DNA of 64,000 nucleotides. Source: Patescibacteria group bacterium. Its GTDB lineage: Bacteria; Patescibacteriota; UBA1384; XYA2-FULL-43-10; 1-14-0-10-43-13. Of this stretch, positions 2,355 to 61,662 are shown piece after piece. The DNA lies in assembly GCA_041649155.1 (NCBI GenBank), contig JBAZNP010000001.1, positions 673,183 through 737,182 on the forward strand, written 5' to 3'. The notes under the pieces are model-generated. The model did not search any database. It saw nothing but the letters and a program-made list of their open reading frames with translations, and had not been told where the DNA came from. Position 1 is the first letter of the stretch; each line of letters starts with the position of its first letter. The translations under genes and the position numbers were made by a program.

Positions 2355-2423
2355 CGTCATTCCAGACTTGATCTGGAATCTATATAAATAGTAACTGGAT
2401 CCCGTATCAAGTACGGGATGACA
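2355..2423. repeat. palindromic mini-element E1 (GTCATTCC...GGGATGACA family)
   Basis: cgtcattccagacttgatctggaatc...ggatcccgtatcaagtacgggatgaca forms two stem-loops and shares termini with the other copies. Ends about 20 nt before the trpS ATG. Confidence 0.7.
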
Positions 2424-2443
2424 AAGATGTGGAATATAAAAAT

Positions 2444-3433
2444 ATGAAAAGAATTTTTTCAGGCATTCAGCCTTCAGGTATTATCCATTTAGGAAATTAT
2501 CTTGGTGCCATAAAACAATGGGTAGAACTTCAAAAAGATGTTGACGAAGCGATTTTTTGTGTTGTTGATCTTCACGCAATCACAATTCCACAAGATCCGA
2601 AAGAACTGCAAAAAAATATTCTTGCAACCGCTGCATTGTACCTTGCTTCAGGCATCGATCTAAACAAGTCAACAATTTTTGTTCAATCATCTAGGCCGGA
2701 ACATGCAGAACTTGCCTGGATTTTAAACTGCCAGGCCAAAATGGGGGAGTTGTACAGAATGACGCAGTTTAAGGAGAAGTCAGTTAAAGGTGATGCCGAT
2801 ATGTCTGGTGTTGGTCTTTTTGATTATCCTGTTTTGATGGCATCTGACATTTTACTTTATCAAACAAATTTAGTTCCGGTTGGCGAAGATCAGAAGCAAC
2901 ATGTCGAGTTAACTCGTGATTTAGCGCAAAGATTTAACAAAAATTTTGGAGAGACTTTTATAGTACCAGAGCCAATTATTAAAAAAGAAACAGCAAGAAT
3001 AATGGGACTTGATGATCCAACCAAAAAGATGAGCAAGTCTGCTTCTTCTCCCTACAATTATATTGCGATGACTGACAATGCTGATACAATCAGGCAGAAG
3101 ATAAAACGTGCGGTTACGGACTCAGGCTCGGAAATTAAATCAGGACAAGACAAGCCTGCTATTACAAATCTCCTCGCTATTTATTCAGAAGTTACGGGTA
3201 AAGTGGTGGGGGAAATTGAGAAAGAATTTAATGGCAAAGGTTATGGTGAATTTAAAAATGCGCTTGCCGAAGCAGTTGTCGAATACTTGAAACCAATTCA
3301 AACTAAATATAATGAAATTATTCGTGACGAAAAATCGCTTAGAGATATTTTAAAAAAGGGAAGTGAAAAAATTGCACCTCTAGCTCAAAAAACTATTGCT
3401 GAAGTCAAAGAAAAAGTTGGACTGGGACTATGA
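2444..3433 (+). CDS. trpS: tryptophanyl-tRNA synthetase
   Basis: MKRIFSGIQPSGIIHLGNYLG class I HIGH-type motif typical of TrpRS, and KMSKS present. Start chosen at the ATG matching the TrpRS N-terminus; the ORF-track start is an upstream GTG. Confidence 0.9.
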   Translation: MKRIFSGIQPSGIIHLGNYLGAIKQWVELQKDVDEAIFCVVDLHAITIPQDPKELQKNILATAALYLASGIDLNKSTIFVQSSRPEHAELAWILNCQAKMGELYRMTQFKEKSVKGDADMSGVGLFDYPVLMASDILLYQTNLVPVGEDQKQHVELTRDLAQRFNKNFGETFIVPEPIIKKETARIMGLDDPTKKMSKSASSPYNYIAMTDNADTIRQKIKRAVTDSGSEIKSGQDKPAITNLLAIYSEVTGKVVGEIEKEFNGKGYGEFKNALAEAVVEYLKPIQTKYNEIIRDEKSLRDILKKGSEKIAPLAQKTIAEVKEKVGLGL

Positions 3434-3873
3434 AACAAATTTTTATCAATACAGACGGAGGGTCCAGAGGAAACCCTGGGCCGGCGGCAATAGGGATTGT
3501 TTTCTCTGATTCGGAAGGAAAATTAATTCATAACCATAAAGAATGTATTGGCAAGGCTACCAACAATGAAGCTGAGTATGGAGCAATAATCAAGGGTCTG
3601 GAGATATTAGTTAAAAGCAAATGGTTTTTGGAGAATAACACTCCCGAAAGCAAAGTTATTTGTCGGTTGGACAGCAAATTGGTGGTTGAACAAATCAACG
3701 GCAATTTTAAAATAAAACAACCTCATATTCAGAGATTCATTAATCAAATTAAAACTATTTTGAGTGATTTTCATTTAAATATACAATTTATTCATATCCC
3801 GAGAGAAGAAAATAAGGAAGCTGATAAATTGGTGAATGAAGCGTTGGATGAAAAGGTGGAGAGTAGAAAGTAG
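3430..3873 (+). CDS. rnhA: ribonuclease HI
   Basis: INTDGGSRGNPGPAAIGIV...NNEAEYGAIIKGLE catalytic motifs of RNase H. Start overlaps the trpS stop (ATGA). Confidence 0.85.
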   Translation: MKQIFINTDGGSRGNPGPAAIGIVFSDSEGKLIHNHKECIGKATNNEAEYGAIIKGLEILVKSKWFLENNTPESKVICRLDSKLVVEQINGNFKIKQPHIQRFINQIKTILSDFHLNIQFIHIPREENKEADKLVNEALDEKVESRK

Positions 3874-3893
3874 AGAATGGAAAGTTCTTTTTG

Positions 3894-3974
3894 CGTCATT
3901 CCGGACTGTGGCTTGAGATCCGGAATCTATACAATAGTCGTGCTTCTGGATCCCAGATCAAGTCTGGGATGACA
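3894..3974. repeat. palindromic mini-element E2
   Basis: cgtcattccggactgtggcttgagatccggaatc...ggatcccagatcaagtctgggatgacag. Lies 14 nt upstream of the next ATG. Confidence 0.7.
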
Positions 3975-3987: not shown

Positions 3988-4245
3988 ATGAAAAAAATTT
4001 CAGTAAAAGTTATTCCTGGAGCTAAAGTTGAGCAAATCCAAACAGTCCTTCCCCTATCATCCTCGGACTTGACCCGAGGATCTATGGAACATTCAAAAGT
4101 TTGGGTCAAGGGTAAACCTGTTGATGGAGAGGCTAATAAATGTGTAATAGAATTGCTTTCAAAACATTTCAGTGTTCCTAAAAGCAGTATTTTTATAGTA
4201 AGAGGGTTGACGTCGAGAAATAAGATAATACAAATTGAGAACTAA
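3988..4245 (+). CDS. DUF167/YggU-family protein
   Basis: KVIPGAKVE...[40 protein letters not shown] matches the conserved DUF167 core. Carries an in-frame half-element at 4058-4082. Confidence 0.55.
4058..4082. repeat. half palindromic element inside the DUF167 CDS
   Basis: atcctcggacttgacccgaggatc repeats the hairpin arm seen in E3 (ggatcctcggatcaagtccgaggatgac). It is in frame, encoding SSSDLTRGS. Confidence 0.5.
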
Positions 4246-4264: not shown

Positions 4265-4843
4265 ATGAACGAAAGAAAAAGGAGTTGTAATCTTGAGCGA
4301 AATCGAAAAGGGTTTACACTTATAGAATTGCTGGTTGTAATCACGATTATTGGTATCCTGGCAACTGTTATTATTATTAATGTGTCTAAGGCTCGGGCAA
4401 AGGCTTCAGACGCACGAAGAAAGAGCGATATTTCACAGATAGCTAAAGCAATAAAAATGTTTTATACAGAGAAAGGTGAATATCCACATAATCCCAGCCA
4501 GGATACTGTACATCTTGGTAGAGATAATTCTGCAAGTGCTTCTTCTAACTGGGGGTGGCTTGGTGGTGATAATTATCTTAAGCCATATCTCAATATTTTG
4601 CCTACAGACCCGATAAATAAGTCCTCGCCACCACCACAACATATTTATTATTATAATGCTAGAGATACAAAGAACACCACACTACTAGGGGGTCCATATA
4701 ATTGGTTCTCTATTTATGCTACTAGTTTAGAGAATACCGGCGACAGCCAAACTTGTAGTGGAGGAAATCGATTTACTGTAGGCTACAGTCAGCCTTGTGC
4801 CTCAAATTATAGCAACGGATTTGGCATTAGTAGCGATAAATAA
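4265..4843 (+). CDS. type IV pilin/pseudopilin (PulG/PilA-like)
   Basis: RKGFTLIELLVVITIIGILATVIIINVSKARAKASDARRKSDISQIAKA: canonical prepilin cleavage and methylation motif followed by a PulG-like helix. RBS ggagggg precedes the ATG at 4265. Confidence 0.8.
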   Translation: MNERKRSCNLERNRKGFTLIELLVVITIIGILATVIIINVSKARAKASDARRKSDISQIAKAIKMFYTEKGEYPHNPSQDTVHLGRDNSASASSNWGWLGGDNYLKPYLNILPTDPINKSSPPPQHIYYYNARDTKNTTLLGGPYNWFSIYATSLENTGDSQTCSGGNRFTVGYSQPCASNYSNGFGISSDK

Positions 4844-5147
4844 AACCTCCTTATTGAAAAAAACGTAATCATACTGTATTCTAATGCCTAGAAGCGTTTA
4901 TTAGTCTGAAATCAACAGACAAGTATCACTATGTGAATACGCTAAGGGAAGAAAGCGATTTTTCGTGATTAGAACCCTTCGGCTGGCAATCGTAATTGCT
5001 AAAATCAAGCATTTTTTTGGCTGGTACCTCACTTTTGTTAGAATTATGAAGTTAGAATTATGAATTATGGTTCATAATTCAATATTTTCATTATTCAAAT
5101 CATGGTGGCCTTAAGTTATAATATAACGAGAGGCTTTTTTTATAATC

Positions 5148-5217
5148 CGTCATTCCAGACTTGATCTGGAATCTATATAAAATAATTGGATCCTCGGATC
5201 AAGTCCGAGGATGACAC
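5148..5217. repeat. palindromic mini-element E3
   Basis: cgtcattccagacttgatctggaatc...ggatcctcggatcaagtccgaggatgacac. Lies 19 nt upstream of the ileS ATG. Confidence 0.7.
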
Positions 5218-5235
5218 AACACAAAAGGATGTATT

Positions 5236-8124
5236 ATGTTTAAAAAAATTGACCCTAAATTAAATTTACCGCTTGAGGAAGAAAAAGTTTTAAAGTTTTG
5301 GCGCGAAAATGACATTTTTAAAGAAACACTCAGGAAAGAAAGTCCAAAAGGTAATTTTGTTTTCTATGAAGGTCCTCCCACTGCAAATGGTCAGCCTGGC
5401 ATTCATCATGTAGAGGCACGTTCATTTAAAGACCTGTTTTGTCGTTACAAAACAATGCAGGGTTATCATGTTGAGAGAAAAGCAGGTTGGGATACTCATG
5501 GTCTTCCAGTGGAACTTCAGGTTGAAAAAGAGCTAGGTATTTCAGGCAAGTCGCAAATCGAAGATATCGTTTCCGGAGACAAAATAAAGTCAATTGAAAA
5601 ATTTAACGACTTATGCAAGCAATCAGTCTGGAAATACAAGGAAGAATGGGAAAAAATGACCGAGCGAATGGCATATTGGGTCGACATGGATGATCCATAT
5701 GTTACATATGAGCCAAAATACATTGAAAGCGTTTGGAATATCATCTCTGAGATTGATAAAAAAGGACTTTTATATAAAGGACATAAAGTAGTGCCTTACT
5801 GCCCTCGTTGCGGCACTGCTCTTTCATCTCATGAAGTAGCGCAGGGATATAAAAAAGTGACCGAAGAATCAGTTTACGTTAAAGTAAAATCCATGAAAGA
5901 TGAGGTTTGTTTCTTGGTCTGGACAACAACGCCTTGGACCTTGGCGGGAAATGCTGCGTTAGCTTTTAATTCAAACATTAAGTACGTTGTGGCCAAGAAA
6001 GACGGACAAAAACTTATTTTGGCAAAAAACAGGCTTTCAGATGTGTTAAAAGGTAATGATTATGAAGTTATTGAAGAATTAACAGGCAATGAATTAGTTG
6101 AGAAATATTCTACAAAAGAACTTGATTATGAACCAATTTATCCTGATGGTGAAAAATATTCCGAAGCAGGGGATAGAGCTTATAAATTAATTATAGCTGA
6201 CTATGTTTCTGATGCAGATGGCACTGGTATAGTCCATATCGCGCCAGCTTTTGGCGAAGATGACTATACATTCGGTTTTCAAAAAAATGGCATAAAAGTC
6301 TTGAAAACGGTTGACGAAAAAGGAATGGAGTTAGCCGGTGCCGGTGCTGGAAAGTTCGTAAAAAAGGCTGATTCTGATATAAAAATTGATCTGGAAGAGC
6401 GAAATATTTTATTTAAAAAAGAAGATGTCACTCACGATTATCCGTTTTGTTGGAGATGTGAGTCACCATTGCTATATTTTGCCAAAGACTCATGGTACAT
6501 TGCCATGAGCAAGGTGCGGGAAGATTTATTGAAAAACAATGAAGGAATCAATTGGAACCCCGCATATTTAAAACAGGGACGTTTTGGTAATTGGCTCAAA
6601 GAAATCAAAGATTGGGCCATTTCACGTGATCGTTACTGGGGAACTCCGCTTCCGATTTGGGAATGCGAGAAATGCAATAAATACAAAGTCGTTTCTACAT
6701 TAAAAGAAGTTGGCGATATTGATCCACATAAACCTTTTATCGATGAAGTGGAATTTGATTGCGAATGTGGCGGTAAAATGAAAAGAACATCGGAGGTAAT
6801 GGATGTCTGGCTCGATTCTGGAACTATGCCATTTTCGCAATATCACTGGCCATTTGAAAACAAAGAAACATTTGAAAAACAATTTCCAGCTGAGTTTATT
6901 TGTGAAGCTGTTGATCAAACACGAGGCTGGTTCTATACAATGCTTGCGGTTTCAACATTAATTAAAAACGAAACTCCTTATAAAAATGTTATTTCGGTCG
7001 GTCATGTTTTAGATGAAAAAGGCAAGAAAATGTCTAAGTCATTGGGAAACATTGTTAAACCTGAAGAAGCATTTCAAAAATTTGGTGCCGATGTTGTTCG
7101 CTATTATTTTTATGCGGTTAATCAGCCGGGTGAACCAAAACTATTTTCTGAAAAAGAGGTGGTTTCGTTGTCAAGAAATCTGTTTTTAACTCTATGGAAT
7201 GTTTTTTCTTTCTTTATGACCTATGCTTCAATCGATGATTTTAAACCAACAGGAAAAGTAAAAATTGATAATATTTTAGACAAGTGGATAATGGCCAAAT
7301 ATCAAAAACTTGTAAATGACGTCACAAAGTCGTTGGATCAATACGATCCATATCATGCAAGCAACTCTTTGATTGAATTTACAACGGAGCTTTCAACTTG
7401 GTATGTTCGTCGTTCTCGCAGAAGATTTTGGAAAAGCGAAAATGACTCTGACAAATTATCCGCATATGAAACTCTCTATCAAGTTTTGAATGGGATGACC
7501 AAACTTCTGTCTCCATTTGCACCAATGTTTGCAGATTTGTTGCACAGTCATTTAAAATCTAATTCAGATCCAATTTCTGTTCATTTGACAGAATATCCGG
7601 AAGTTTCAGAGCATGACAAAAAGGTTATTTTAGATATGGAACGTGCAAGAAAAATAGTCGAAGCCGGATTATCTGCTAGAGCTGAAGCAAAAATTAAAGT
7701 TCGTCAGCCTTTGCAATCCATTGGCTACTACGGAGAAAAATTAAGTCCTGATCTAGAAGAGATACTAGCAGATGAAATAAATGTTAAGGAAGTAAAAAAT
7801 CTTACAGAAAAATCAGAAAATGTTGTTAAACTTGATTTAAATATTACACCAGAATTAGAGAGAGAGGGTCAGGCCAGAGAGTTGGTGCGAAATATTCAGT
7901 CTTTGCGAAAAAAATCAGGTTTTGAAGTTGAGGACAGAATTGAACTATATTTTCAAACAGAATCTACTGTGCTTATTGAAATGATGAAAAAAATGCAAGA
8001 AATAATTGCAAAAGAGATTTTGGCGGAGAAAATTGAGAATATAAAAGCAGAAACTGAGGGCGAAGAAGAATTCTCTATTAGCGGCGAAAAAATCTGGATT
8101 GGTGTTTCAAGGGTAAAAAAGTAA
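5236..8124 (+). CDS. ileS: isoleucyl-tRNA synthetase
   Basis: 962 aa. PPTANGQPGIHHVEARSFKD (HIGH-region), KMSKSLGN, and the editing-domain region WTTTPWTL. Confidence 0.95.
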   Translation: MFKKIDPKLNLPLEEEKVLKFWRENDIFKETLRKESPKGNFVFYEGPPTANGQPGIHHVEARSFKDLFCRYKTMQGYHVERKAGWDTHGLPVELQVEKELGISGKSQIEDIVSGDKIKSIEKFNDLCKQSVWKYKEEWEKMTERMAYWVDMDDPYVTYEPKYIESVWNIISEIDKKGLLYKGHKVVPYCPRCGTALSSHEVAQGYKKVTEESVYVKVKSMKDEVCFLVWTTTPWTLAGNAALAFNSNIKYVVAKKDGQKLILAKNRLSDVLKGNDYEVIEELTGNELVEKYSTKELDYEPIYPDGEKYSEAGDRAYKLIIADYVSDADGTGIVHIAPAFGEDDYTFGFQKNGIKVLKTVDEKGMELAGAGAGKFVKKADSDIKIDLEERNILFKKEDVTHDYPFCWRCESPLLYFAKDSWYIAMSKVREDLLKNNEGINWNPAYLKQGRFGNWLKEIKDWAISRDRYWGTPLPIWECEKCNKYKVVSTLKEVGDIDPHKPFIDEVEFDCECGGKMKRTSEVMDVWLDSGTMPFSQYHWPFENKETFEKQFPAEFICEAVDQTRGWFYTMLAVSTLIKNETPYKNVISVGHVLDEKGKKMSKSLGNIVKPEEAFQKFGADVVRYYFYAVNQPGEPKLFSEKEVVSLSRNLFLTLWNVFSFFMTYASIDDFKPTGKVKIDNILDKWIMAKYQKLVNDVTKSLDQYDPYHASNSLIEFTTELSTWYVRRSRRRFWKSENDSDKLSAYETLYQVLNGMTKLLSPFAPMFADLLHSHLKSNSDPISVHLTEYPEVSEHDKKVILDMERARKIVEAGLSARAEAKIKVRQPLQSIGYYGEKLSPDLEEILADEINVKEVKNLTEKSENVVKLDLNITPELEREGQARELVRNIQSLRKKSGFEVEDRIELYFQTESTVLIEMMKKMQEIIAKEILAEKIENIKAETEGEEEFSISGEKIWIGVSRVKK

Positions 8125-11171: not shown

Positions 11172-11211
11172 GTCATCCTGAGCGAATCGCTAAGCGATGA
11201 GTCGAAGGATC
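11172..11211. repeat. short member of the palindromic element family (E4)
   Basis: gtcatcctgagcgaatcgctaagcgatgagtcgaaggatc. Its reverse complement resembles E5 (gatccctcgacttcgctcgggatgac). Confidence 0.5.
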
Positions 11212-15353: not shown

Positions 15354-16430
15354 ATGTCTCAATACCTACTTGCACTAAATGCACATGAGAAAATTGGGAG
15401 TCAGACTATCAAAAAAGCTCTGGCTCCTTTTGGTGATAATGCTGAAAAATTGTGGAAAGTAGGGGATAGTGAAATTAGAAAAAAGTTGGATAGTCGGATT
15501 GCAGAATTAATTATTGAAGCGAAAAACCAATTTGATCCTTTGGCTGAAATTAAAAAATTACAAAAACTCAATATTGGTTATATGACAATGTATGATAAAG
15601 AATATCCGAAACTTTTAGCAGAAACGTCGGATGGGCCAGTCGTCTTATATATTCGGGGAGACATTAACGCCTTAAAAGTTCCAAGTATTGGCGTTGTTGG
15701 TAGTCGGAAATTTACCCACTATGGGCAAAAAGTCGCCTATCAATTATCCAAATCTTGTAGTGAGGCCGGTTTGAGTATCGTGTCAGGACTTGCCCTTGGG
15801 ATTGACACAGTGGCTCACAGGGCTGCGCTTGATGTTGGCGGGATTACGGTTGGGGTTTTGGGTTGTGGGCTGGATCGGATTTATCCTGCCAGTAATTTAA
15901 TGCTTGGCAAAGAAATAATCGAAAAAGGCGGGGCGGTTGTTTCGGAATTTCCGCCCGGAACTCCGCCGTTAAAATATAATTTTCCTGCTCGTAATCGAAT
16001 TATTGCCGGATTAACATTGGGTACACTTGTGATTGAAGCGGCCGAACAATCTGGAGCTTTGATAACGGCTTATCAGGCCTTGGAGTATAACCGTGAAGTT
16101 TTTGCTGTACCCGGCAACATTGACTCTGAAACCTCAAAAGGTACAAATTTACTAATTCAAAAAGGAGCAAAAACGGTAACTAAGCCGGAAGATATTTTAG
16201 AGGAATTTAATATTGAGGCGAGAAAAATTGAACAGAAAAATAGGGATTTATTGCCGGAAAATGTCAATGAAAAATTGATTTTTAATATCTTATCTTCGGG
16301 AGAAAAATTGGTCGATATCATTGTGTCTGAAAGTAAGTTAAACATCATAACTGTTAATACTTGTCTGACAATGATGGAGATGAAAGGAATAATCGAAAAT
16401 ATTGGGGGTGGTCGTTATAAATTGCGATGA
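15354..16430 (+). CDS. dprA: DNA processing protein DprA (Smf)
   Basis: GVVGSRKFTHYGQKVA...IVSGLALGIDTVAHRAAL...FPARNRIIAGL: Rossmann-like DprA core motifs. Confidence 0.9.
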   Translation: MSQYLLALNAHEKIGSQTIKKALAPFGDNAEKLWKVGDSEIRKKLDSRIAELIIEAKNQFDPLAEIKKLQKLNIGYMTMYDKEYPKLLAETSDGPVVLYIRGDINALKVPSIGVVGSRKFTHYGQKVAYQLSKSCSEAGLSIVSGLALGIDTVAHRAALDVGGITVGVLGCGLDRIYPASNLMLGKEIIEKGGAVVSEFPPGTPPLKYNFPARNRIIAGLTLGTLVIEAAEQSGALITAYQALEYNREVFAVPGNIDSETSKGTNLLIQKGAKTVTKPEDILEEFNIEARKIEQKNRDLLPENVNEKLIFNILSSGEKLVDIIVSESKLNIITVNTCLTMMEMKGIIENIGGGRYKLR

Positions 16431-16514: not shown

Positions 16515-16543
16515 GATCCCTCGACTTCGCTCGGGATGACAAG
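16515..16543. repeat. short palindromic element E5
   Basis: gatccctcgacttcgctcgggatgacaag, 22 nt upstream of the topA ATG. Confidence 0.5.
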
Positions 16544-18973: not shown

Positions 18974-19036
18974 ATTTAACCCCCTGGAACAGTCATAACG
19001 TTGTTAACTATACCATATAACTCAATAAAAGTCAAT

Positions 19037-32244: not shown

Positions 32245-33480
32245 ATGGCATTTGAATTAATCAAAAAATTAGATAACGGAGTTCGGGTTGGAAAACTAAC
32301 AACGCCTCATGGAGAAATTGAGACGCCTTTTTTTATGCCGGTGGGCACAGTCGGTAGTGTTAAGGGTGTATCGCCAAATGAATTAAACGAATTGGGTGCT
32401 CAAATAGTTCTGTCTAATACTTATCATCTGTATTTGCGTCCAGGAGAAAAACTAATTAAAAAACTTGGTGGACTGCATCAGTTTATGAATTGGAATAGGC
32501 CAATACTTACCGACTCTGGCGGATACCAAGTCTTTTCTTTGGGAAAAGACAATTCTAAATTTCTAATTTCTAATGACAAATCAAATTACAAAACCCAAAT
32601 AACAAATGTCCAAACATCTTTGGTTAAAATTACTGAGGATGGGGTTGAATTTAAGTCGCATTTAGACGGAAGTAAGCATTTTTTTACTCCTGAGAAAGTA
32701 ATCCAAATTCAACTTGATTTAGGGGTGGATATCTTGATGCCGCTCGATGTTTGTCCCAGCGGGAAGGCAACTCGGGAGGAGATTGAAGAAGCTTGCAAGT
32801 TAACAATATCTTGGGCAAAGCGTTCCAGAAAATATTTTCTGGAACAAGTAGAAAGTAGAAAGCTGAAAGATAACAGGCCACTTCTTCACGGAATAGTCCA
32901 AGGGGGATTGTATGAAGATTTACGCAGATATTGCGCTAAAGAGCTTATTAACCTTGATTTTGATGGATACTCAGTCGGAGGGTTGGCAGTTGATTTTGAA
33001 ACTCGTGATATGTGGAAGACTGTAAAATTGATGGGAGAAATTCTTCCCGAAAACAAGCAGAGATATTTAATGGGGGTTGGAACTCCTGACGACATTATTA
33101 AAGCAACGAAATTAGGCATGGACATGTTTGATTGTGTTTTGCCGACAAGATTAGCTCGTCACGGATCGGTTTATGTTAAAAATTGTCATTCCCACAACAA
33201 CCTTTGTCATTCCCGCGAAGGCGGGAATCCAGAGCCTGGATCCCAGATCGAGTCTGGGATGACAGACCATTATAAACTTATCAATCTTTTAAATTCCAAA
33301 TACAAAGAGGACGGGGGAGTGATCGATGAAGAATGCGCCTGTCCGGCTTGTAAAGGGGGATTTAGCCGTGCTTACATTTCGCACCTTCTAAGATCCAAAG
33401 AAATATTGGGACTGCGTTTAGCAACACTGCATAATCTACATCAGTATTTAGAACTGATGAGGGAATTAAAAAGTGAATAA
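32245..33480 (+). CDS. tgt: queuine tRNA-ribosyltransferase carrying an in-frame palindromic-element insertion
   Basis: TPHGEIETPFFMPVGTVGSVKG, LTDSGGYQVFSL, and zinc site CACPACKGG...SHL. About 30 extra residues (KNCHSHNNLCHSREGGNPEPGSQIESGMTDH) sit where other TGTs are contiguous; these are encoded by element E6. TATAAT lies 11 nt upstream of the ATG. Confidence 0.9.
   Translation: MAFELIKKLDNGVRVGKLTTPHGEIETPFFMPVGTVGSVKGVSPNELNELGAQIVLSNTYHLYLRPGEKLIKKLGGLHQFMNWNRPILTDSGGYQVFSLGKDNSKFLISNDKSNYKTQITNVQTSLVKITEDGVEFKSHLDGSKHFFTPEKVIQIQLDLGVDILMPLDVCPSGKATREEIEEACKLTISWAKRSRKYFLEQVESRKLKDNRPLLHGIVQGGLYEDLRRYCAKELINLDFDGYSVGGLAVDFETRDMWKTVKLMGEILPENKQRYLMGVGTPDDIIKATKLGMDMFDCVLPTRLARHGSVYVKNCHSHNNLCHSREGGNPEPGSQIESGMTDHYKLINLLNSKYKEDGGVIDEECACPACKGGFSRAYISHLLRSKEILGLRLATLHNLHQYLELMRELKSE
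33185..33265. repeat. palindromic mini-element E6 inserted in-frame in tgt
   Basis: gtcattcccacaacaacctttgtcattcccgcgaaggcgggaatccagagcctggatcccagatcgagtctgggatgacag: same termini and the same second hairpin as E2. Confidence 0.7.
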
Positions 33481-38745: not shown

Positions 38746-39096
38746 ATGAATAACGATGATATGAACAAAGCGGACAATATTGAGGAAACTAATGATATAA
38801 TATTGCTGTATCAGAAAAAAATCATGGAAGAACTAGGGCTTGATAAGCTTTCCGAAAAAGAAAAAGAGGAAGCTGAAGCAAAAATTGCCAACCTTGTTAA
38901 TAACAGGGTGGTGAATATTATTTTGGCGTATTTACCGGAAGAGAAAGCCGAAGAATTTAAAGTTTTGATTGAGCAAGAAAAACTGGATGAAATAATTAAA
39001 TTTTTAAAAACAACAGTGCCTGATATTGAAGTTAAAATTGCAAATGATCTAATGCTGTTAAGAAAAGAATTAATAAGCAAATTGGCGAAAAAATAA
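38746..39096 (+). CDS. hypothetical protein (116 aa, K/E-rich)
   Basis: ORF with RBS ggagggg. Stop overlaps the next start (ATAATG). Confidence 0.4.
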   Translation: MNNDDMNKADNIEETNDIILLYQKKIMEELGLDKLSEKEKEEAEAKIANLVNNRVVNIILAYLPEEKAEEFKVLIEQEKLDEIIKFLKTTVPDIEVKIANDLMLLRKELISKLAKK

Positions 39097-40886
39097 TGTT
39101 ACAAAATACGGAAACAAAATCTAAGTCAGGATTACTGATGGACGCATCTGCTCATTTTAGTGAATCAGGAACTTCTGATAACTTTTTGGAGCTTCAAAAG
39201 GCTCTTAGCGCTGCTTCTGAGGCGGATAAAAATAAACTACGTGCAAGATATGCAGGTAAAGAAGGTTCTGCGGTCGAAGCGTCTCAAGAAAAAGGTATTG
39301 AGACCAGTGAGCAGGAAAAATTTGATGAATTGATGGAGGCTGTGAATAAGTTTGAGGAATTGGCCAAAGAGACTAAGAACATTGAAAAAGAACTTCAGGA
39401 AGCCGAAAGGGCTCATGATGAACATTATAGTAGCTATGCTGGGAAGATTACTTTGGCTGATCAAAATAGAGAGAGGGGATTGGTTACACTTAGAGCTGAA
39501 GTCGGACAAAAGCTCGAAGAAATGATTGTATTAAAGGGTGATATTCTAGACAAATTATCAGATATTAAATCTCATGAACTGAGGGCGAAAACATATGAGC
39601 GATTTGAAAGAAAGAAACCTGATGAAGTAGGAATGTCCAGTGAAGTAAAGTTGGAAACAAAATCCGACAAACATACAGATGATTTAAAGCATCGAACACT
39701 TAATCATAAGGCTAGGGAAATAGTTAAGTCTAATCTTGAAAAAATAGCAAAAAAGAAAACAGAAGCGGAAAAAATTGTCGTAGAAGTGGCCCCTGAAAAT
39801 GTTGAGCCTTCTGTACAGGAAGAAACCGCTGTCGCAAATGATTTGAAAGAAGAAGAAATTAGAAATAATTCAGAAGATCATCTTGCGCCTGGGATTCAAA
39901 TTGGCCGAGAAGAGGAGAGTGAAACACCTAAACCAGAAGAAGTTCAGACTAAGTCTCCAAAGGATATTATTGAACAAAAAGCGGTTATTGATATTCCTGA
40001 ACAAAAACCCCAGCCAGTTGCAGAAAATAAATCTGAAATTAAAGACAAACCATCCGAACCTCCGGTTGAAATCATGGAAATTGGACCAGATGGCGATCCT
40101 GTTAGCGTTACAGATAATGAAGGAGACTTTAGGGAAGACGAGATAACTTTTGTTGATGGTTCGGCTCAGCAGAACATTCCACAATCAAAAGTGGGGGAAA
40201 GTGAAAAGCAAAAAGTAGATTCTTCAGAATTTATCGATAAAATCAGAGAAAAACAATCCGAAATTGCAGAAAGAATGGGACTGGAACTTAAGAAACCAGT
40301 TGCCGAACCGATAAGGAAAATTGACGACTTTTTGCCGCCAACATCCAGAATTGAACAGGCAGCGGAAACAATAGAGCAAGATTTAAATAAACCAATCGCA
40401 GCTGCAAAAGCAGAACCAATTATTGATGAGAAGACTGTGAGTTCTATTCCTGTTATCCCCGAGAAGTCGGGGATCCAAGATAGTGATAGATTAGTAGATT
40501 CCCGCCTACGCGGGAATGACAATGTGGAGGGCGGGAATGACAATGCGAAAATGGCTGAATCGGACGATCAAATATTAACTCAAAATATTCAAACAGCAGA
40601 GCCCGTTGTCCCTGAGCAGAAAATCGAACCGGTTCAGCCGGTTACGGAAGAAGTGGGTAATAATGATGCAGGCAATATGATAGATATCAAGCCGGCAATC
40701 GAGGCAAAAGAAATTCAATTAGAGCAGCCTTTGCCAGAGCAAAAGAGGGGATTCTTCGGGAGAATTTTTGGCGGGAATAACGCTGATAGGCATGGTGCTG
40801 AAGTGATAGCTGGAAAGGGTGATGAATTAACCGCTGACCACATACATCAAATATTGGGTGCTAATGAAGAGAAAGAAGCGGCATAG
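39096..40886 (+). CDS. hypothetical charged/low-complexity protein (596 aa) with an in-frame palindromic-element insertion
   Basis: Coiled-coil-like E/K-rich sequence. Element E7 encodes ...IPEKSGIQDSDRLVDSRLRGNDNVEGGNDNAKM. Confidence 0.4.
   Translation: MLQNTETKSKSGLLMDASAHFSESGTSDNFLELQKALSAASEADKNKLRARYAGKEGSAVEASQEKGIETSEQEKFDELMEAVNKFEELAKETKNIEKELQEAERAHDEHYSSYAGKITLADQNRERGLVTLRAEVGQKLEEMIVLKGDILDKLSDIKSHELRAKTYERFERKKPDEVGMSSEVKLETKSDKHTDDLKHRTLNHKAREIVKSNLEKIAKKKTEAEKIVVEVAPENVEPSVQEETAVANDLKEEEIRNNSEDHLAPGIQIGREEESETPKPEEVQTKSPKDIIEQKAVIDIPEQKPQPVAENKSEIKDKPSEPPVEIMEIGPDGDPVSVTDNEGDFREDEITFVDGSAQQNIPQSKVGESEKQKVDSSEFIDKIREKQSEIAERMGLELKKPVAEPIRKIDDFLPPTSRIEQAAETIEQDLNKPIAAAKAEPIIDEKTVSSIPVIPEKSGIQDSDRLVDSRLRGNDNVEGGNDNAKMAESDDQILTQNIQTAEPVVPEQKIEPVQPVTEEVGNNDAGNMIDIKPAIEAKEIQLEQPLPEQKRGFFGRIFGGNNADRHGAEVIAGKGDELTADHIHQILGANEEKEAA
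40455..40545. repeat. palindromic mini-element E7, in-frame inside the CDS
   Basis: atccccgagaagtcggggatc ... attcccgcctacgcgggaatgacaatgtggagggcgggaatgacaatg has the same arms as E6 (cccgcgaaggcgggaat). Confidence 0.6.
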
Positions 40887-44177: not shown

Positions 44178-44178
44178 A

Positions 44179-45213
44179 ATGACAACAATAAAGAATTTTA
44201 GTCCCTACAAAATTGTTAAAAAGGCAATGGAAAGCTTAAAACCAAATGAGGTTAAAGTTATTGCAGGTCGTTTTGGTATTGATGAAGACAGAAAGACTCT
44301 TTCCTCTATTGGTAAAGAATTAAATCTTTCGAGAGAAAGAATTCGTCAAATTGAAAAAGAGGGACTTAAAAAGCTTGCATCTAAAATCGTCGATCGTAAA
44401 AATGAATATCTTGAATTAATCATTCAATCATTTAAGCAAAGCGGTGGAATTGCCAAGCATGAAAATATCGCAAATAAGTTTTTGGAAGAGAGTTTGAAAT
44501 CAAATAAAAATGAATTTAATGCTTTGCATTTGATTTTCTTTCTCATGCCGGAACTTAAGAAGATCGATAAGACTAGAGAACTGGAAGCAAGCTGGGTCAT
44601 TGCTTCTTTATCTAAAGATGAAGTTCTTGGAATTATTAATAATTGGGTTGATCATCTACAAAAAGTGAAAAAACCAACTACGATAGATATTCTCGTAAAA
44701 GAAAATCCTAGTCATAATAAATATGAAATGACCTTTTTGTCCGAATTACCTTACATCAGTAAAAAGCTGGTTAAAACAGAAAATGACTTTATTGGATTAG
44801 CATCTTGGCCTGAAGTAAATCCTAAAAATGTGCGCGATAAAATTTACTATATCCTAAAAAAAGAAGGTAAACCTGTTCACTTTGAAATAATTGCAAAGAA
44901 GATTAATGAAGAAAAATTTTCAAAGAAAAAAGTTGTAAAAGCCACTGTTCACAATGAATTAATTGCTGACGACAGATTTATTCTAGTAGGCAGAGGAATT
45001 TATGCACTTAGAGAATGGGGATACGAGCCCGGAACAGTGAGAGATATTATAAAAAATATTTTAGATATTCATAATCATTCTATGAAGGTTGATGAAATTG
45101 TTTCAGAAGTTCTAAAACAAAGAACTGTTAAGAAAAACACTATTTTGATTAACTTGCAAACAAAGTCGGATTTTAAAAAAGCCGGCAAAGATAGCTACGA
45201 ACTCGCTAAGTAA
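44179..45213 (+). CDS. sigma-70 region-4-like HTH protein with 270-aa C-terminal extension (not a canonical sigma factor)
   Basis: VKVIAGRFGIDEDRKTLSSIGKELNLSRERIRQIEKEGLKKLASKI matches the sigma70 region 4.2 HTH. No region 2. Start overlaps the upstream stop. Confidence 0.5.
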   Translation: MTTIKNFSPYKIVKKAMESLKPNEVKVIAGRFGIDEDRKTLSSIGKELNLSRERIRQIEKEGLKKLASKIVDRKNEYLELIIQSFKQSGGIAKHENIANKFLEESLKSNKNEFNALHLIFFLMPELKKIDKTRELEASWVIASLSKDEVLGIINNWVDHLQKVKKPTTIDILVKENPSHNKYEMTFLSELPYISKKLVKTENDFIGLASWPEVNPKNVRDKIYYILKKEGKPVHFEIIAKKINEEKFSKKKVVKATVHNELIADDRFILVGRGIYALREWGYEPGTVRDIIKNILDIHNHSMKVDEIVSEVLKQRTVKKNTILINLQTKSDFKKAGKDSYELAK

Positions 45214-45306
45214 TTAGCAAAAACATTGAGAATGATGTAAAATAGTGTTAGAAAGTAAACGCGATATAATTTGGCGTTTACTTGTAAAACAAAATGGGGG
45301 AGCTCT

Positions 45307-48300: not shown

Positions 48301-48393
48301 GCAAAAGAAACTACTACCAAAGATAATAAAACCAATATTGTTAATCATGCCGATGCGAAACACCTAACAGAAGGTGAAGAAACAGTTTTGTAA
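45307..48393 (+). CDS. second TraG/VirD4/TraD-like ATPase (paralog) with C-terminal 330-aa charged extension
   Basis: RBS gggggag then ATG. TM IFLFLILVVIVLAAGYLILIL. Walker A VGKSGTGKS (near 46535). FLYVDEFQNF. SEARKYNLCLTMANQYIEQM. FGNAGTIAAFRVGGADADFL. N-domain shares YAQYP(A/Y)(V/A)EI with the first copy. Confidence 0.6.
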   Translation: MQIFLFLILVVIVLAAGYLILILTKIKNAKAKQEWMESQEYTTLRIDVPKNNDKKPLSAEQMFASIHGIYSENSLFQNHLSFEIVARDKFIQFYVYVPKHIKDFVEGQIYAQYPAVEIHEVPDYTESVKPTDGINFAVCDLNMTKPDVYPVKFFTDFEVDPLSGITSVMTKLNQGEEVWFQLVMKPVGDEWQEKGNSIVSAVRAGRKPGGVGISSTILGHLKQFSKAFIQQAIQPGVETEESKSEVKLPATVEEALKGIEQKIVKLGFETKIRILSISNDPISAKVRCQSVSAAFKQFNTTNLNGFKVGEIVTNNYDTWKDFSQRSFEDAGNILNIAELASIYHLPHETVETPNIVWSGAKKGEPPANLPFRENISEEVLTVIGMTNFRSTFHEFGIKNDDRRRHIYIVGKSGTGKSTLIENMAVDDVVRGKGVIIVDPHGELADKVISCVPDYRINDVIVFDPADRAYPIGFNLLEHVEDDFKGMVASGFVGIFKKIFGDSWGPRLEHILRNTVLALLDFTESTMLDIPRMLTDNRFRDRVVEKVKDPVIRDFWVNEFAQYDSKFRTEAVSPILNKVGQFLATATIRNIVGQSKSKINIREIMDQKKILIVNLSRGKIGEDNSALLGAMMITKIQLAAMSRADVTADKRADCFLYVDEFQNFATESFATILSEARKYNLCLTMANQYIEQMSEEVRSAVFGNAGTIAAFRVGGADADFLVKEFEPVFDANDMVNLDKYNIYIKLLIDGISSPAFSAKTLPPVQKLTGNVEKIVNQSHEKYSSLRSVIEEKIINRDKEEEALLKAEAEAFKQGGLEALLVKKADHSTVHVASPEKKSDAFGEAPKETGDSLKRESVPERVTSENTENTEDYIKKESKPRVFRYQNIIGDKIYKEQTARGGVKWYVGEEIDLAKQKELGVEVLKDGEKMIELANKVKKSAVNVSHERTEDPKDTDLNKTDSTIKDRETGSKETKKVEDEKSLTPSKEPDVIIQEEKGEKAKETTTKDNKTNIVNHADAKHLTEGEETVL

Positions 48394-48617
48394 AACTGAG
48401 AGCTTAGATTTTAATTTAAGGGATTTTTTCGATTTTTCGGCAGGGGATAATGAAATCGGGGGAGTGCCTTATTTTTCATTTTATTCTATTTTTTATTTCT
48501 CAACAAAAAGTACCCCCTCTTTCTTTTCTGAAATCATTAAAATAAAATGAAAAATAGAATAAAAAAAAGAGGCTTATTTTATTTTATAATTTTATTATTT
48601 TAATGTAATTATTATTG

Positions 48618-48704
48618 TCATTTCGACCCCGTGCCCGTGAAACGGTTGGAGAAATCTTAATTAAGATGGGTTGAAAGATCCCTCCACGTTGGTTGGGATG
48701 ACAA
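48618..48704. repeat. palindromic mini-element E8
   Basis: tgtcatttcgaccccgtgcccgtgaaacggttgg...gatccctccacgttggttgggatgacaa. The terminal part is the reverse complement of E9. Confidence 0.6.
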
Positions 48705-48847
48705 TAGTGAGTTATATTGACCAAGAGGACTGGTTCGGAGAGCTGAGAAAGGCTTCTAGGGGGCTTTGCATGAGTCTGATATGAGAACTATTATGTGTCC
48801 TCGGTACAATAAATACTGGATTGCGTCGTGGCGATTTTGCATGAATA

Positions 48848-48875
48848 ATGTCGCATAACATGCATTATGCGACAT
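48848..48875. promoter_or_regulatory. dif-like 28-bp site (11-6-11) in the convergent intergenic region
   Basis: ATGTCGCATAA-CATGCA-TTATGCGACAT: perfectly palindromic 11-bp arms whose inner ends match dif/XerCD arms (…CGCATAA / TTATG…). Located exactly where gene orientation switches from + to -. Confidence 0.4.
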
Positions 48876-48993
48876 AAACATTTACTAAATATGACTTTTC
48901 TATCAAATCGGTTGTATTTTAACTAAGTAAACAGGATTATTGAGCACAAAAAACCCTACAATCGATTTTAAGCGATTTTTATTGTTTGAGTGA

Positions 48994-53505: not shown

Positions 53506-54353
53506 TTTAAAAAACCGGATATGCTAGTATCGCTGTTAACCCTATATCGATTAAGCTCAAATAAATTCTCAAAAGTTGTTAACTTGCTTTTTGTGGTTAC
53601 GGCATATTTATAGCCAGTCTCTTTGACGATTTGAGCCGTTTCTTCGGAAAATTTCCCCGAAGGATAGCAGAAAGAAATTACATTGTTGCCGATAAGCGAT
53701 TCAAGAGCTTTCTTGCTGCTTGAAATTTCTTCCTGTGCTCTACTGGAGGACGATGTGCTTAAATCCGGATGTGATAAAGTGTGAGAGCCTATTTCTATTC
53801 CATTTGAATTTATCTCTTTTATCTCTTTTTCGCTTAAGTAATCATTCTTGCCAATATCATTTACAATAACGAAAACCGTGCCGATCATTCCTCTTTTTTT
53901 AAGCTCGGGATAGGCATTTTGATAAAAGTTTTCATATCCATCGTCAAAAGTTAGTATTATTGGTTTTGTTGGAGTATTACCAGTACTTAAATCATTAAAA
54001 GTAATTGTTGTATATCCTTCGTTTTTAATTAGATCAAGTTGCTTGGCAAATTTTTCCGGCGAAACTGATAAATTAGTTCCTATTTTGTCATTTGGATCAC
54101 TAAAATCACGAATGTGATGATACATTAAAACTGGCATCGACAGGTTTTGTAGATTTGCTTCATTTGTTGATGTGGATGTGGTGTTATCTTCAGTCTTATC
54201 TTCAATTGAAGATATTTTCACAATCTCCGAGTCGTTATTATTCTGTGTGGACGGAGAAATAACTTTTTCATTTTTAATGAAAATAATTCCGCAAAAAATT
54301 AATGCAGAAGCAACTGTTAATATTATAATTTTTTTTGATTTGCGTTTTTTCAT
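53502..54353 (-). CDS. polysaccharide deacetylase (NodB/PgdA family), membrane-anchored
   Basis: TM IIILTVASALIFCGIIFI. NodB motifs LTFDDGYENFY and HTLSHPDLS. Confidence 0.85.
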   Translation of the reverse strand: MKKRKSKKIIILTVASALIFCGIIFIKNEKVISPSTQNNNDSEIVKISSIEDKTEDNTTSTSTNEANLQNLSMPVLMYHHIRDFSDPNDKIGTNLSVSPEKFAKQLDLIKNEGYTTITFNDLSTGNTPTKPIILTFDDGYENFYQNAYPELKKRGMIGTVFVIVNDIGKNDYLSEKEIKEINSNGIEIGSHTLSHPDLSTSSSSRAQEEISSSKKALESLIGNNVISFCYPSGKFSEETAQIVKETGYKYAVTTKSKLTTFENLFELNRYRVNSDTSISGFLK

Positions 54354-55483
54354 TACTCTATTAAATCATTTGTTTTTTGTTCTAGAATGTTTTGACTTTT
54401 AATTTTATCCACAACTGAAGTTAATTGTCTATTTCTAGTATTTGCTACTACATCGAATTGTTTGCCAGCTGAAGATATTCGATCACCCAAAGTATCAACT
54501 GCAGCACAATATTTTTGATATTCAGTATCAAATTTTTGAATTAAGCCGATAATGTGGTGAAGATTTTCCTGATATCGGAAGTTTGTGTATGCCTGCTTGA
54601 CCATTCGCAAAATAGCAGTGAAACTAAATGGTCCTGCTAAAATTACTTTTTTTTGCATCGCTTCTTCCCAAATATCATTCATTTTATCGTAAATGAAGCT
54701 GAAAATCATCTCATTTGGAATAAAAAGTATGACAAAATCAACTGTTTTTTCTTCAGGGTTAATATAATCTCTGGTGCAAACCTGTTTAATCTTATTCTTT
54801 ACGTCCTGTTTAAAATCTCTCAAATAACGCTCTTTTGTGGTTTTGTCATTTGATTCAACATATTTTACTAATGAAGAATAAGGAAACTTAACATCAATGT
54901 TGATTTTAGTTTGATCTGGTAAGAAGATCGTAAAATCCGGCCTAGTGTCTCGTGTTTGCTGAGTTTCATTCTTTGAGTAGTCTTGTCCAATTACTAAACC
55001 TGCCATTTGCAGTAAATTTTCAGCTACCTGTTCGCCAAATGCTCCTCGCATTTGGTTGTTGGAAAGAAGTTCCTTTAGCTTATCAGTACTTAGCTTTAAG
55101 TCGCCAGTTATTTCTTTATAGCTTTTCAATTCGTTTTGTAGTGCTGAAAAAGATTTTACCCTGTCTTCATCGCTTTTAGTAATTCGTTCTTCGTTTTTTC
55201 TTATGTCTTTTCTTATCTCGTTTATTAGCTCTCCGATTGCAGATTTCTTGCCGTCTAAATCTGTTTTGATCTCATTTTTCTGTGAATTCAGAACTTCTTT
55301 CGCCAGTGTTAAAAATTGTTCTGTGTTATTTTTTAAGGCGTCGTTTGAAATTCTGGCGATCTTGTCTTCCAAATTCATGTCATCAACATTTTTTGTATTC
55401 TTTTTCTTAATTAAAATATTGGCGGCAATTGTTCCAATTATGGCTGCCAAAAATACTGAGATAATAATAAGTATGTTGTTCAT
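54353..55483 (-). CDS. rmuC: DNA recombination protein RmuC
   Basis: N-terminal TM, long coiled-coil, C-terminal RmuC core (DFVILFIPNE...FTAILRMVKQ). Confidence 0.85.
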   Translation of the reverse strand: MNNILIIISVFLAAIIGTIAANILIKKKNTKNVDDMNLEDKIARISNDALKNNTEQFLTLAKEVLNSQKNEIKTDLDGKKSAIGELINEIRKDIRKNEERITKSDEDRVKSFSALQNELKSYKEITGDLKLSTDKLKELLSNNQMRGAFGEQVAENLLQMAGLVIGQDYSKNETQQTRDTRPDFTIFLPDQTKINIDVKFPYSSLVKYVESNDKTTKERYLRDFKQDVKNKIKQVCTRDYINPEEKTVDFVILFIPNEMIFSFIYDKMNDIWEEAMQKKVILAGPFSFTAILRMVKQAYTNFRYQENLHHIIGLIQKFDTEYQKYCAAVDTLGDRISSAGKQFDVVANTRNRQLTSVVDKIKSQNILEQKTNDLIE

Positions 55484-55533: not shown

Positions 55534-55559
55534 GTCATCCCGACCAACGTGGAGGGATC
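55534..55559. repeat. short palindromic element E9
   Basis: gtcatcccgaccaacgtggagggatc is the reverse complement of the E8 terminal half. Lies about 50 nt upstream of the rmuC start on the - strand, followed by the GC palindrome cctgcctgccggcaggcagg, which also occurs at 40905-40930. Confidence 0.55.
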
Positions 55560-55847
55560 TGTTAACAGTTAATTCTTTTTATTTGTAAGATTTCCCTGCC
55601 TGCCGGCAGGCAGGTCCGCCCCTCAGACAAGGCCGAGGAGTCGAAATGACAGCGGCGAGTGAGCATTGCAATTAAATATAGCATTATTGTAGCATAAATA
55701 TTTAACCGAACAAATGCTGAACATAACAACACAGATTTCTTACACAGATCGAACACTGATACAGGGTGGTCAATAGGACGTTTTACTAATAAAATCGCTG
55801 GCAATATGCCAGTGATTTTATTAGTCTTTCTATTCCCTTTTCTTTCT

Positions 55848-61472: not shown

Positions 61473-61562
61473 CCTGTGTCCCCCGCCAATTAAATAGTTA
61501 TAACAACATTATAATACACAAAAAGCAAAACACAAAATTTTCTATAGGATTCATGCGATCGA

Positions 61563-61662
61563 CGTCATTCCGACTCCTTGGCTTTGTCCAAGGATGGAGG
61601 AATCTTTTAATTAATTAAAACTACTATAAAAAGATCCCTTCATTTCAGTCGGGATGACAAAG
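61563..61662. repeat. palindromic mini-element E10 (two halves)
   Basis: cgtcattccgactccttggctttgtccaaggatggaggaatc ... gatcccttcatttcagtcgggatgacaaag. Lies 90 nt upstream of the giant gene start on the - strand. Confidence 0.6.

Follow-up and report, generated by a model that had tools for sequence, protein, structure and literature searches.

What are the short palindromic elements that recur across a 64,000-nucleotide stretch of a Patescibacteria group bacterium genome (contig JBAZNP010000001.1, positions 673,183 to 737,182; this whole stretch is called the window below), and how might they have come to lie there? An earlier reading, made from the letters alone and referred to here as the sequence-only reading, had described a dispersed family of palindromic mini-elements, written as GTCATTCC...GGATGACA, and had listed eleven positions for it. 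An element is present at all eleven. The analysis reported here indicates that these elements are probably Ssn-related hairpin repeats of the same family as the Neisseria dRS3 repeat and the Neisseria Transformation Sequence (NTS), that they are arranged in doublets like those of the Neisseria intergenic mosaic elements (NIME), and that their host is a member of the Patescibacteria, an ultra-small bacterium of the candidate phyla.

The elements are far more frequent than chance allows, which bears out the description of a dispersed family. A boundary detector (GTCAT+YYC, then the exact complement of ATYYC plus C, that is GRRAT+C, within 6–62 nt) gave 21 matches in the window; 200 dinucleotide-preserving shuffles averaged 0.6 matches and never exceeded 4. 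GTCATTCC alone occurs 8 times where 1.7 occurrences are expected. The 21 matches consist of 17 genuine units, two nested matches at the half-units 33185 and 40541, and two chance or coding matches, at 7424–7446 (conserved in ileS of the related sequence L003) and at 20035–20073. Two units with decayed heads (4056, ATCAT; 40452, GTTAT) are missed by the detector, and the total for the window is 19 units and two half-units, with a unit density of about 0.3 per kb. Copies are not restricted to the window: 25 units were counted in the 79 kb of the source contig that was examined, comprising the window, 7.5 kb upstream of it (L001) and 7.4 kb downstream of it (L127), and further copies occur in relatives and in other phyla. 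A covariance model (CM) trained exclusively on 91 foreign units recovered 15 of the 19 window units, 9 of them at E <= 5e-6, and detected no further copies in the window beyond the 19. The model scored the forward strand about 33 bits higher than the reverse strand (44 bits versus approximately 11 bits).

The repeat noted earlier exists, although the module that is actually repeated is a hairpin unit shorter than the whole GTCATTCC...GGATGACA element. Each unit consists of YGTC, a stem that starts with AT, a loop, and a complementary arm that ends in AT and is followed by C. All 19 window units have the boundaries (G/A)T(C/T)-AT...AT-C, in which the non-palindromic 5' flank and the 3' C give the unit its orientation. 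Sixteen of them are paired in eight doublets, whose units are inverted and have their GTCAT heads on the outside, and the other three are single. Every doublet pairs one T-type unit (GTCATT[CT]C...G[AG]AATC) with one C-type unit (GTCATCC[CT]...[AG]GGATC; GTCATCCC..GGGATC), and these are the two interchangeable stem-loops of the sequence-only reading. Two structural classes can be distinguished. Class A units are perfect hairpins of 8–9 bp with CTTGA or GNRA-like loops, and class B units have a 5-bp base, a GA..GA step (tandem G.A) and a variable inner hairpin. Folded as single-stranded DNA, class A doublets form two separate hairpins (z = -3.5 to -4.7), and class B doublets fold more poorly or pair head to head. 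Most stems are perfect, and the differences between copies are compensatory.

The doublets behave as composites. Their spacers measure 9–29 nt in the window, and window doublets are homologous to other doublets from end to end, spacers included. The doublet at 40520 has a spacer in common with the doublet at L127 5997–6065, and the doublet ending at 55650 aligns over its full length, inner part included, with L001 2579–2693, with which it has a 60-nt inner hairpin in common. A check for direct repeats at the doublet ends found no target-site duplication flanking any doublet. The individual copies are collected in the table, together with the other features discussed below.

Table. Hairpin units, doublets and associated features. 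Positions refer to the window unless a sequence is named; L001 and L127 adjoin the window on the same contig, and L002, L137 and L003 are syntenic relatives. Scores in bits and E values are from the covariance model, and z values are from folding.
Feature	Position	Parts and strand	Setting	Score and fold	Same site in relatives
Class A doublet	2356–2422	T-type 2356–2380 (+), spacer TATATAAATAGTAACTG, C-type 2398–2422 (-)	Upstream of trpS (ATG at 2444)	44 and 44.9 bits; two DNA hairpins, z = -4.7	Absent in L002, L137 and L003
Class A doublet	3895–3973	T-type 3895–3927 (+), C-type 3949–3973 (-)	Between RNase H gene (3430..3873) and DUF167 gene (3988..4245)	z = -3.5	Single class B unit in L002 and L137; class B doublet in L003
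Single class A unit, decayed head ATCAT	4056–4082	+	In frame in DUF167 gene	E = 0.018; hairpin z = -4.0	Absent in L002 and L003; present in L137
Class A doublet	5149–5215	T-type 5149–5173 (+), spacer TATATAAAATAATTG, C-type 5189–5215 (-)	Between terminator of ileS leader and ileS start (5236)	z = -4.6	Absent in L002 (flanks conserved) and L003; present in L137 (88% identity)
Single class B unit	11172–11211	+; 5-bp base, GA..GA, inner hairpin	8 nt past rplK stop		
Single class B unit	16515–16540	-; GTCATCCCGAGCGAAGTCGAGGGATC	Between dprA and topA	E = 0.059	
Composite	33185–33263	Half-unit 33185–33205, NTS-type T 33206–33229 (+), C-type 33239–33263 (-)	In frame in tgt (32245..33480), encoding CHSHNNLCHSREGGNPEPGSQIESGMT	36.1 and 43 bits	
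Composite, reverse orientation to the tgt one	40452–40541	C-type with decayed head 40452–40475 (+), NTS-type T 40497–40520 (-), half-unit 40521–40541 (-)	In frame in ORF 39096..40886 (596 aa), which has no Pfam family		
Class B doublet	48617–48702	T-type 48617–48656 (+), C-type 48677–48702 (-)	Non-coding, at flip of gene orientation	C-type E = 0.037	
Class B doublet, inverted	55534–55650	C-type 55534–55559 (+), long T-type 55589–55650 (-)	50 nt upstream of rmuC start		
Class B doublet	61564–61658	T-type 61564–61604 (+), C-type 61633–61658 (-)	Between addA-like gene and gene for 1874-aa surface protein	DNA fold z = -5.2, both heads pairing together	
Tandem half-units	33185–33205, 40521–40541; L135 5244–5314, 5472–5542, 6010–6080; L150 12182–12250; L128 2085–2155				
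Palindrome CCTGCCTGCCGG(C/T)AGGCAGG	55605–55630, ~40910–40935; L001 2615–2635; variants in L138, L154 and other metagenome contigs				
DNA-uptake and recombination gene stretches	1–2300, 15354–16430, 19001–19633, 40964–48393, 54353–55483, 61729–64000; L001 1–9900				

Two smaller features accompany the units. In tandem half-units, only the 5' arm of a unit, extended by about 12 nt, is repeated once or twice with a period of 21–23 nt directly 5' of a complete unit. They are seen again in unrelated organisms and could have been left behind when the strand was cut and repaired next to the hairpin, on its 5' side, or could represent a nested insertion. A separate small palindrome, CCTGCCTGCCGG(C/T)AGGCAGG, is found inside the long class B T-type units and also alone, upstream of the gene at 40964.

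The family was identified through a full-text literature search with one unit string, which led to the study of Chenal et al. 2025 (PMC11893778); apart from that paper, full-text searches with unit strings returned primers only. Chenal et al. define the NTS, CGTCATTCCCGCGMAVGCGGGAATCYRG, which contains the classical dRS3 repeat, and a wider class, the Ssn-related motifs (SRM). The protein SsnA, a GIY-YIG protein of 94 aa, binds to the hairpin of the NTS and cleaves immediately 5' of it, on single-stranded DNA only and on one strand only; cleavage depends most on the three bases before the palindrome, and binding depends most on the C after it (PMC11893778). According to the literature, a single-domain GIY-YIG nuclease of roughly 94 aa, Ssn, binds such hairpins in Neisseria and Wolbachia and cleaves the strand a few bases to their 5' side. 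Window positions 33205–33232 match the NTS consensus at 27 of 28 bases, within the limit of one mismatch applied to NTS searches in that paper. The published SRM search string, HGTCWYN(0-2)YYVSBRHN(0-5)WNVSBRGN(0-2)RNCYNB, is matched by three window units, among them 33206–33229, compared with 0.08 in shuffles. The near-complete NTS match and the occurrence of the same hairpin in more than 15 phyla place the elements with dRS3/NTS, and the claim of the sequence-only reading that they form a different sequence family was not borne out. The repeat family is an already described one, and what is new is its Patescibacteria host. Rickettsia is among the genomes with more than 300 SRMs, and Patescibacteria are absent from the main text of the paper (PMC11893778).

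The same hairpin is distributed widely. A search of species-representative genomes with GTCATYCCNNNCTTGANNNGGRATC, a pattern that leaves three stem pairs free, returned at least 120 stretches from more than 15 phyla, Patescibacteria included. The matches listed come from Alpha-, Beta- and Gammaproteobacteria, Sulfurovum, Sulfuricurvum, Sulfurimonas, Bacteroidota, Ignavibacteria, Chloroflexi, Elusimicrobia, Firmicutes, Spirochaetes, Actinobacteria, Cyanobacteria-related bacteria, Dependentiae, Omnitrophota, Zixibacteria and several Patescibacteria lineages. Among the 128 foreign copies listed, the free NNN triplets are complementary in 113, where chance would give 1/64; the four free pairs are 95–97% Watson-Crick, with 3–4 pair types each, and the flanks carry the bias of the NTS (Y at -1, Y at +1, A at +2). 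The 100% pairing among the training units of the covariance model was not used as evidence, because it was produced by the selection of those units. In the 120 foreign loci listed, adjacent units within 80 nt of each other make up 58 heads-out pairs, compared with 8 heads-in and 13 direct pairs, and the two members are usually of different types. A perfect unit, GTCATTCCGCACTTGATGCGGAATC, was also found in a metagenome-assembled genome of a Methanosarcinales archaeon (L123, JAIWAR010000015.1), which reflects either contamination of the bin or a host range that reaches archaea.

This pattern of variation bears on whether the units are sites for a DNA-binding protein, as operators or DNA-uptake-type sequences, instead of nuclease targets or mobile DNA. 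The palindromic form of the units agrees with such a function, as does the presence of type IV pilus and dprA competence genes in the organism. However, the stem covaries freely and only the flanks and the base pairs are fixed, a pattern typical of a folded single strand that is recognised as such and not of a duplex operator. Copies also lie inside genes, and the same motif is located next to ssn and occurs in more than 15 phyla. We regard binding sites of this kind as highly improbable. Integron attC sites and CRISPR repeats were considered and rejected on sequence grounds.

The connection to Ssn is provided by genes that lie next to such units. Five ssn-like genes are located in four of the at least 120 pattern-selected loci (L019, L116, L105 and L062). 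The gene in Elusimicrobium (L019) has doublets on both sides, and that in Candidatus Peribacteria (L116) is bracketed by heads-out units. The ssn copy at L116 6665–6931 contains an internal stop codon between intact flanking units and, judged from its reading frame, is likely a pseudogene. A search with the Peribacteria Ssn protein yielded 3415 relatives of 94–96 aa that belong to PF01541, and those among the matches listed that are 65–89% identical come from Absconditabacterales, Paceibacterota, Ignavibacteria, Bacteroidetes, Omnitrophota and Francisella. SRMs have been reported nearby for 71% of ssn homologues (PMC11893778).

One of the proteins, P0177 of Paceibacterota, is encoded in a 466-bp cassette that consists of TGTCATTCCCGCGGAGGCGGGAATCCAGG, ssn and CCTGGATTCCCGCTTCCGCGGGAATGACA (L125, L126). 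The cassette was found in a JGI metagenome and in the ENA sample ERZ27247361 (L126); the sample of the window is ERZ27247363. P0177 and its relatives are predicted to be single-domain GIY-YIG proteins of 94–96 aa, homologous to an ssn-like ORF of N. gonorrhoeae. The only ORF that matches in two N. gonorrhoeae chromosomes shares 63.5% identity with P0177, and the range for Ssn proteins of the candidate phyla radiation (CPR) is 62–64%. In N. gonorrhoeae (L128), the ssn-like ORF is embedded among heads-out NTS doublets; in this strain no canonical start codon is present in frame with the ORF. The two N. gonorrhoeae chromosomes, each of 2.17 Mb, are listed among the plasmids of PLSDB (NZ_CP119140.1 and NZ_CP119142.1), which is a curation error.

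Sequences of the window itself recur in such cassettes. The 28-mer GTCATTCCAGACTTGATCTGGAATCTAT, present in the window at 2356 and 5149, has exact copies in 27 JGI metagenome stretches, six of which carry ssn. In L146 and L142, the ssn ORF begins 14 nt after the GTCATTCCAGACTTGATCTGGAATCTAT unit, its stop codon lies within a C-type unit, and the resulting cassette of unit, ssn and unit spans 331 bp between recR and ybaB. A more divergent Ssn clade is associated with class B units, which lie on both sides of the gene in L154 and adjoin it in L131. In other metagenomes, the same T-type unit with a TATA-rich spacer is followed by a variety of right-hand units, and L131 contains the identical spacer TATATAAATAGTAACTG. 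The ssn cassette of L146 and L142 has a left end and a leader similar to the left unit and spacer of the ileS doublet. Because the ileS spacer TATATAAAATAATTG resembles the L146 leader TATATAATAATTGT, which extends from the left unit to the ssn ATG, the doublets can be read as ssn cassettes without the ORF.

A mechanism can be proposed on this basis. Each unit, a short palindrome oriented by its flanks (Y-GTC before, C-Y-A after), would fold as a hairpin on single-stranded DNA, and Ssn, a single-domain GIY-YIG protein of about 94 aa, would bind the hairpin and cut the strand a few bases 5' of it. The doublets would be ORF-less derivatives of the compact unit-ssn-unit cassette (331–466 bp in other genomes) that move as intact composites, either by spreading or through recombinational exchange. 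Their landing sites would be short intergenic spacers and, where the reading frame stays open, the inside of genes. We infer that the genome encodes, outside the sequence examined, an Ssn enzyme that acts on the window copies and that Ssn is the mobilising enzyme of the doublets; the system would also affect incoming single-stranded DNA. A role in DNA uptake would fit, since the organism carries type IV pilus genes and dprA.

In its most specific form, the proposal is tentative, and we hold it to be somewhat doubtful as a whole. The heads-outward hetero-doublets would be non-autonomous derivatives of the 330–470 bp cassette, equivalent to miniature inverted-repeat transposable elements (MITEs), and Ssn would mobilise a pan-bacterial element through single-stranded DNA hairpins and without target-site duplication. 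The element would be active in Patescibacteria, with in-frame insertion as in tgt, and the class of unit would co-vary with the clade of Ssn (class A with that of L146 and P0177, class B with that of L131 and L154).

The layout of a small enzyme gene flanked by its own repeats is also that of the repetitive extragenic palindromic (REP) elements and their doublets, the REPINs, which are mobilised by RAYT, a Y1 transposase of the IS200/IS605 type. REP, BIME and REPIN-RAYT systems have in common with the present family inverted hairpin doublets without target-site duplication, abundance, a mostly intergenic location, and ORF-less copies that far outnumber the gene. By contrast, the conserved 5' flank here is (Y)GTC and not GTAG or GTGG, and no Y1 transposase, an enzyme of the HUH type, is present among the genes of the window, L001 and L127 as annotated with Pfam. 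In six phylogenetically scattered contexts, the unit-flanked gene encodes a GIY-YIG nuclease. Of all the explanations considered, mobilisation by a RAYT is the one to which we give the least credence.

Comparison with syntenic relatives provides evidence on insertion. Four relatives were used, with nucleotide identities to the window in trpS of 85% (L002), 80% (L137) and 75% (L003, with L004). Orthologous loci differ in the presence or absence of the element and do not carry it as conserved regulatory sequence (L002, L003 and L137), as the table shows for the four sites around trpS, DUF167 and ileS. Two further sites differ: L003 carries a doublet in place of a 25-nt spacer of the window, and the two pilus ATPase genes are separated by a doublet in L001 but not in L003. 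The sequence-only reading had placed copies between genes or in frame within them, as in the Rickettsia palindromic elements (RPE), and the in-frame copies are confirmed at three of the eleven sites (tgt, the DUF167 gene and the 596-aa ORF), where they account for five units. Compared with L002 and L003, the DUF167 gene has 11 extra residues (33 extra nt) at the unit, and the element in Tgt falls within residues 313–345, a segment without equivalent in solved structures of the enzyme. Relative to these structures, Tgt contains another insertion, of about 26 residues (101–126; window 32545–32625), which is not derived from a unit.

Several observations weigh against the proposed explanation. 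No ssn gene or remnant was found in the 79 kb of the source contig by regular expression and tblastn (window, L001 and L127). The orientation of units relative to ssn is not uniform, the heads pointing inward in Sphingopyxis (L105), and the resemblance of the doublet spacer to the ssn leader spans a short, AT-rich sequence. The SRM string is matched by only 3 of the 19 units; the remaining 16 are off by a few positions and keep the GTC...C boundary. The single class B units fold weakly under DNA nearest-neighbour parameters, with z = -1.6 for 11172–11211 and z = +0.3 for 16515–16540; they were assigned through the boundary motif and by analogy to L131 and L154, the latter unit being recognised by its boundary motif and not by its folding energy. 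Finally, the ileS doublet and the DUF167 insertion are common to the window and L137, whose trpS is only 80% identical, which suggests that some copies are old and stable rather than actively mobile.

These points raise an alternative in which the family assignment is right and the copies are inert, the genome having no Ssn and the units being fossils of a past invasion or piecemeal imports by recombination. The lack of an ssn gene in the 79 kb, the conserved positions in L137 and the two decayed heads (4056 and 40452) speak for this alternative, and 19% of the genomes with more than 200 SRMs lack a detectable SsnA homologue (PMC11893778). On the other hand, most stems in the window are perfect and differ in a compensatory manner, several sites differ among close relatives, and units occur at about 0.3 per kb. 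CPR genomes do encode Ssn, including one from the sample with the neighbouring accession. On balance, inert copies are unlikely, and an Ssn-related repeat family in a Patescibacteria host is the reading that we retain.

The position of some copies close to start codons had suggested that the element supplies 5' untranslated region (UTR) structure or a ribosome-binding context. The short distances are correct for four genes (trpS 21 nt, DUF167 14 nt, ileS 20 nt and topA 24 nt), but they do not constitute a rule: other copies lie 50–180 nt from a start or 8 nt past a stop. The inferred function was not borne out, since the element is missing at trpS in three relatives (L002, L003 and L137) and at ileS in two (L002 and L003), and these genes keep start regions of their own. 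The element carries no Shine-Dalgarno sequence. A promoter function was rejected, the terminal ATGACA giving only weak matches at 9 of 12 positions, and so was a terminator function: no sense-strand T-run follows the units, and the only terminator-like call at an element is antisense, at 5190–5212.

A broader form of this idea is that the elements act as RNA, either by tuning the 5' UTRs of trpS, ileS, topA and the DUF167 gene or as small RNAs like FtrB and WsnRNA46. Rfam searches at gathering thresholds and tRNA scans of the window gave no matches. Below threshold, Rfam FtrB (RF02748; gathering score 66) scores 24.6 bits at 5128–5242 and 29.4 bits at 2335–2444, and Rfam WsnRNA46 (RF02625; gathering score 65.3) scores 21.7 bits at the ileS doublet. 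The FtrB consensus itself consists of a T-type NTS unit, a spacer and a C-type unit with a CTTGA loop. In Francisella, FtrB is a 115-nt transcript verified by Northern blot and rapid amplification of cDNA ends (RACE), and because the Northern probe contains GTCATTCCCGCGTAGGCGGGAATC, identical to the window unit 40497–40520, such doublets can be transcribed. This suggests that the FtrB and WsnRNA46 families of small RNAs are transcripts of such doublets. Together with the four copies that end 14–24 nt before a start codon, these matches are what speaks for an RNA function. However, the FtrB scores fall far short of the gathering score, deletion of ftrB has no growth, stress or virulence phenotype and causes modest transcript changes, and SsnA does not interact with RNA (PMC11893778). 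Orthologues dispense with the element upstream of the same genes, other copies are located after stops, between convergent genes and inside genes, no Shine-Dalgarno sequence is supplied and the promoter-like matches are weak. We consider a function as RNA very unlikely.

Upstream of ileS, the leader at 4843–5145 is long and conserved and has a terminator-like hairpin and T-run (GGCCTTAAGTTATAATATAACGAGAGGC TTTTTTT) at its end, as well as a T-box-like TGGTACC box. Counterparts are present at L002 3255–3692 and at approximately L137 2780–2935, and the L002 leader holds insertions of other unit types, for example at 3341–3377. A T-box was tried as an identification and rejected, as no Rfam T-box was detected upstream of ileS even at E <= 1.

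Among known systems, Neisseria NTS/dRS3 is the closest: it has the boundary signature CGTCAT..ATCYRG and oriented hairpins, and units identical to those of the window adjoin ssn elsewhere. The density is also similar, N. meningitidis having roughly 700 dRS3 copies in 2.2 Mb. The window differs in its patescibacterial host, in the deviation of most units from the SRM string, and in having a second class of unit with a 5-bp base, tandem G.A and an inner mini-hairpin. It differs also in the location of copies, 3 of the 11 sites being in frame in genes, in contrast to about 2% of NTS inside genes (PMC11893778).

The arrangement in doublets resembles NIME, which Parkhill and colleagues are said to have described in 2000 as a repeat block flanked by inverted dRS3. 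Both have heads-outward inverted pairs around a short variable spacer and mosaic combinations of units, and L128 shows the same layout around ssn. In the window, by contrast, spacers measure 9–29 nt instead of about 60 nt, the paired units are normally of different types, and the RS spacers are not shared. The sequence-only reading had likened the behaviour to two other kinds of element. The RPEs of Rickettsia are likewise palindromic and occur in frame in conserved protein genes as well as in intergenic DNA; at about 100–150 bp they are longer than the window units. Correia elements (CREE) are also small, abundant and mostly intergenic inverted-repeat elements near genes, but their termini differ and they are classical duplex MITEs; their terminal-repeat cores (terminal inverted repeats, TIR, of ~26 bp) are absent from both strands of the window, and no TA or other target duplication was found. 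FtrB and WsnRNA46 differ in that they are transcripts in two proteobacteria and not a DNA repeat family.

According to Pfam annotation, the window genes comprise housekeeping genes and genes for DNA uptake or recombination, and no transposase is among them. The uptake and recombination genes are abundant and include type IV pilus ATPases, pilins, a prepilin peptidase, dprA, recR, rmuC, an addA-like helicase-nuclease and two VirD4/TraG-like ATPases (see table). Several doublets adjoin pilin genes, like the NTS clusters in Neisseria. The stretch 48703–48990 is about 290 nt of non-coding sequence at a + to - flip in gene orientation, where the cumulative GC skew levels off; it has no Rfam match and may be a terminus region or an RNA of a kind not known so far. 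Directly upstream of rplJ, positions 30738–30885 match the leader of ribosomal protein L10 below threshold (35.8 bits; gathering score 44) and probably represent a genuine but divergent leader.

The units are a hazard for annotation, as they yield spurious peptides and wrong start calls. In L002 (2378–2649), the start of the DUF167 gene is called too far upstream, into a class B unit, which creates the spurious N-terminus MVDISEGEKSL.

The description of the repeat family and its nuclease dates from 2025 and draws mainly on reference genomes of Pseudomonadati (PMC11893778). The high density of the repeats in a reduced Patescibacteria genome that is equipped for competence widens the host range of the system. 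The authors raised the open question of whether unit-ssn-unit is a mobile element (PMC11893778). The present data provide material on this question: compact cassettes whose left end and leader match window doublets, a predominance of heads-out doublets across phyla, the absence of target-site duplications, presence or absence of copies in relatives, and in-frame insertions that are tolerated in tgt and the DUF167 gene.

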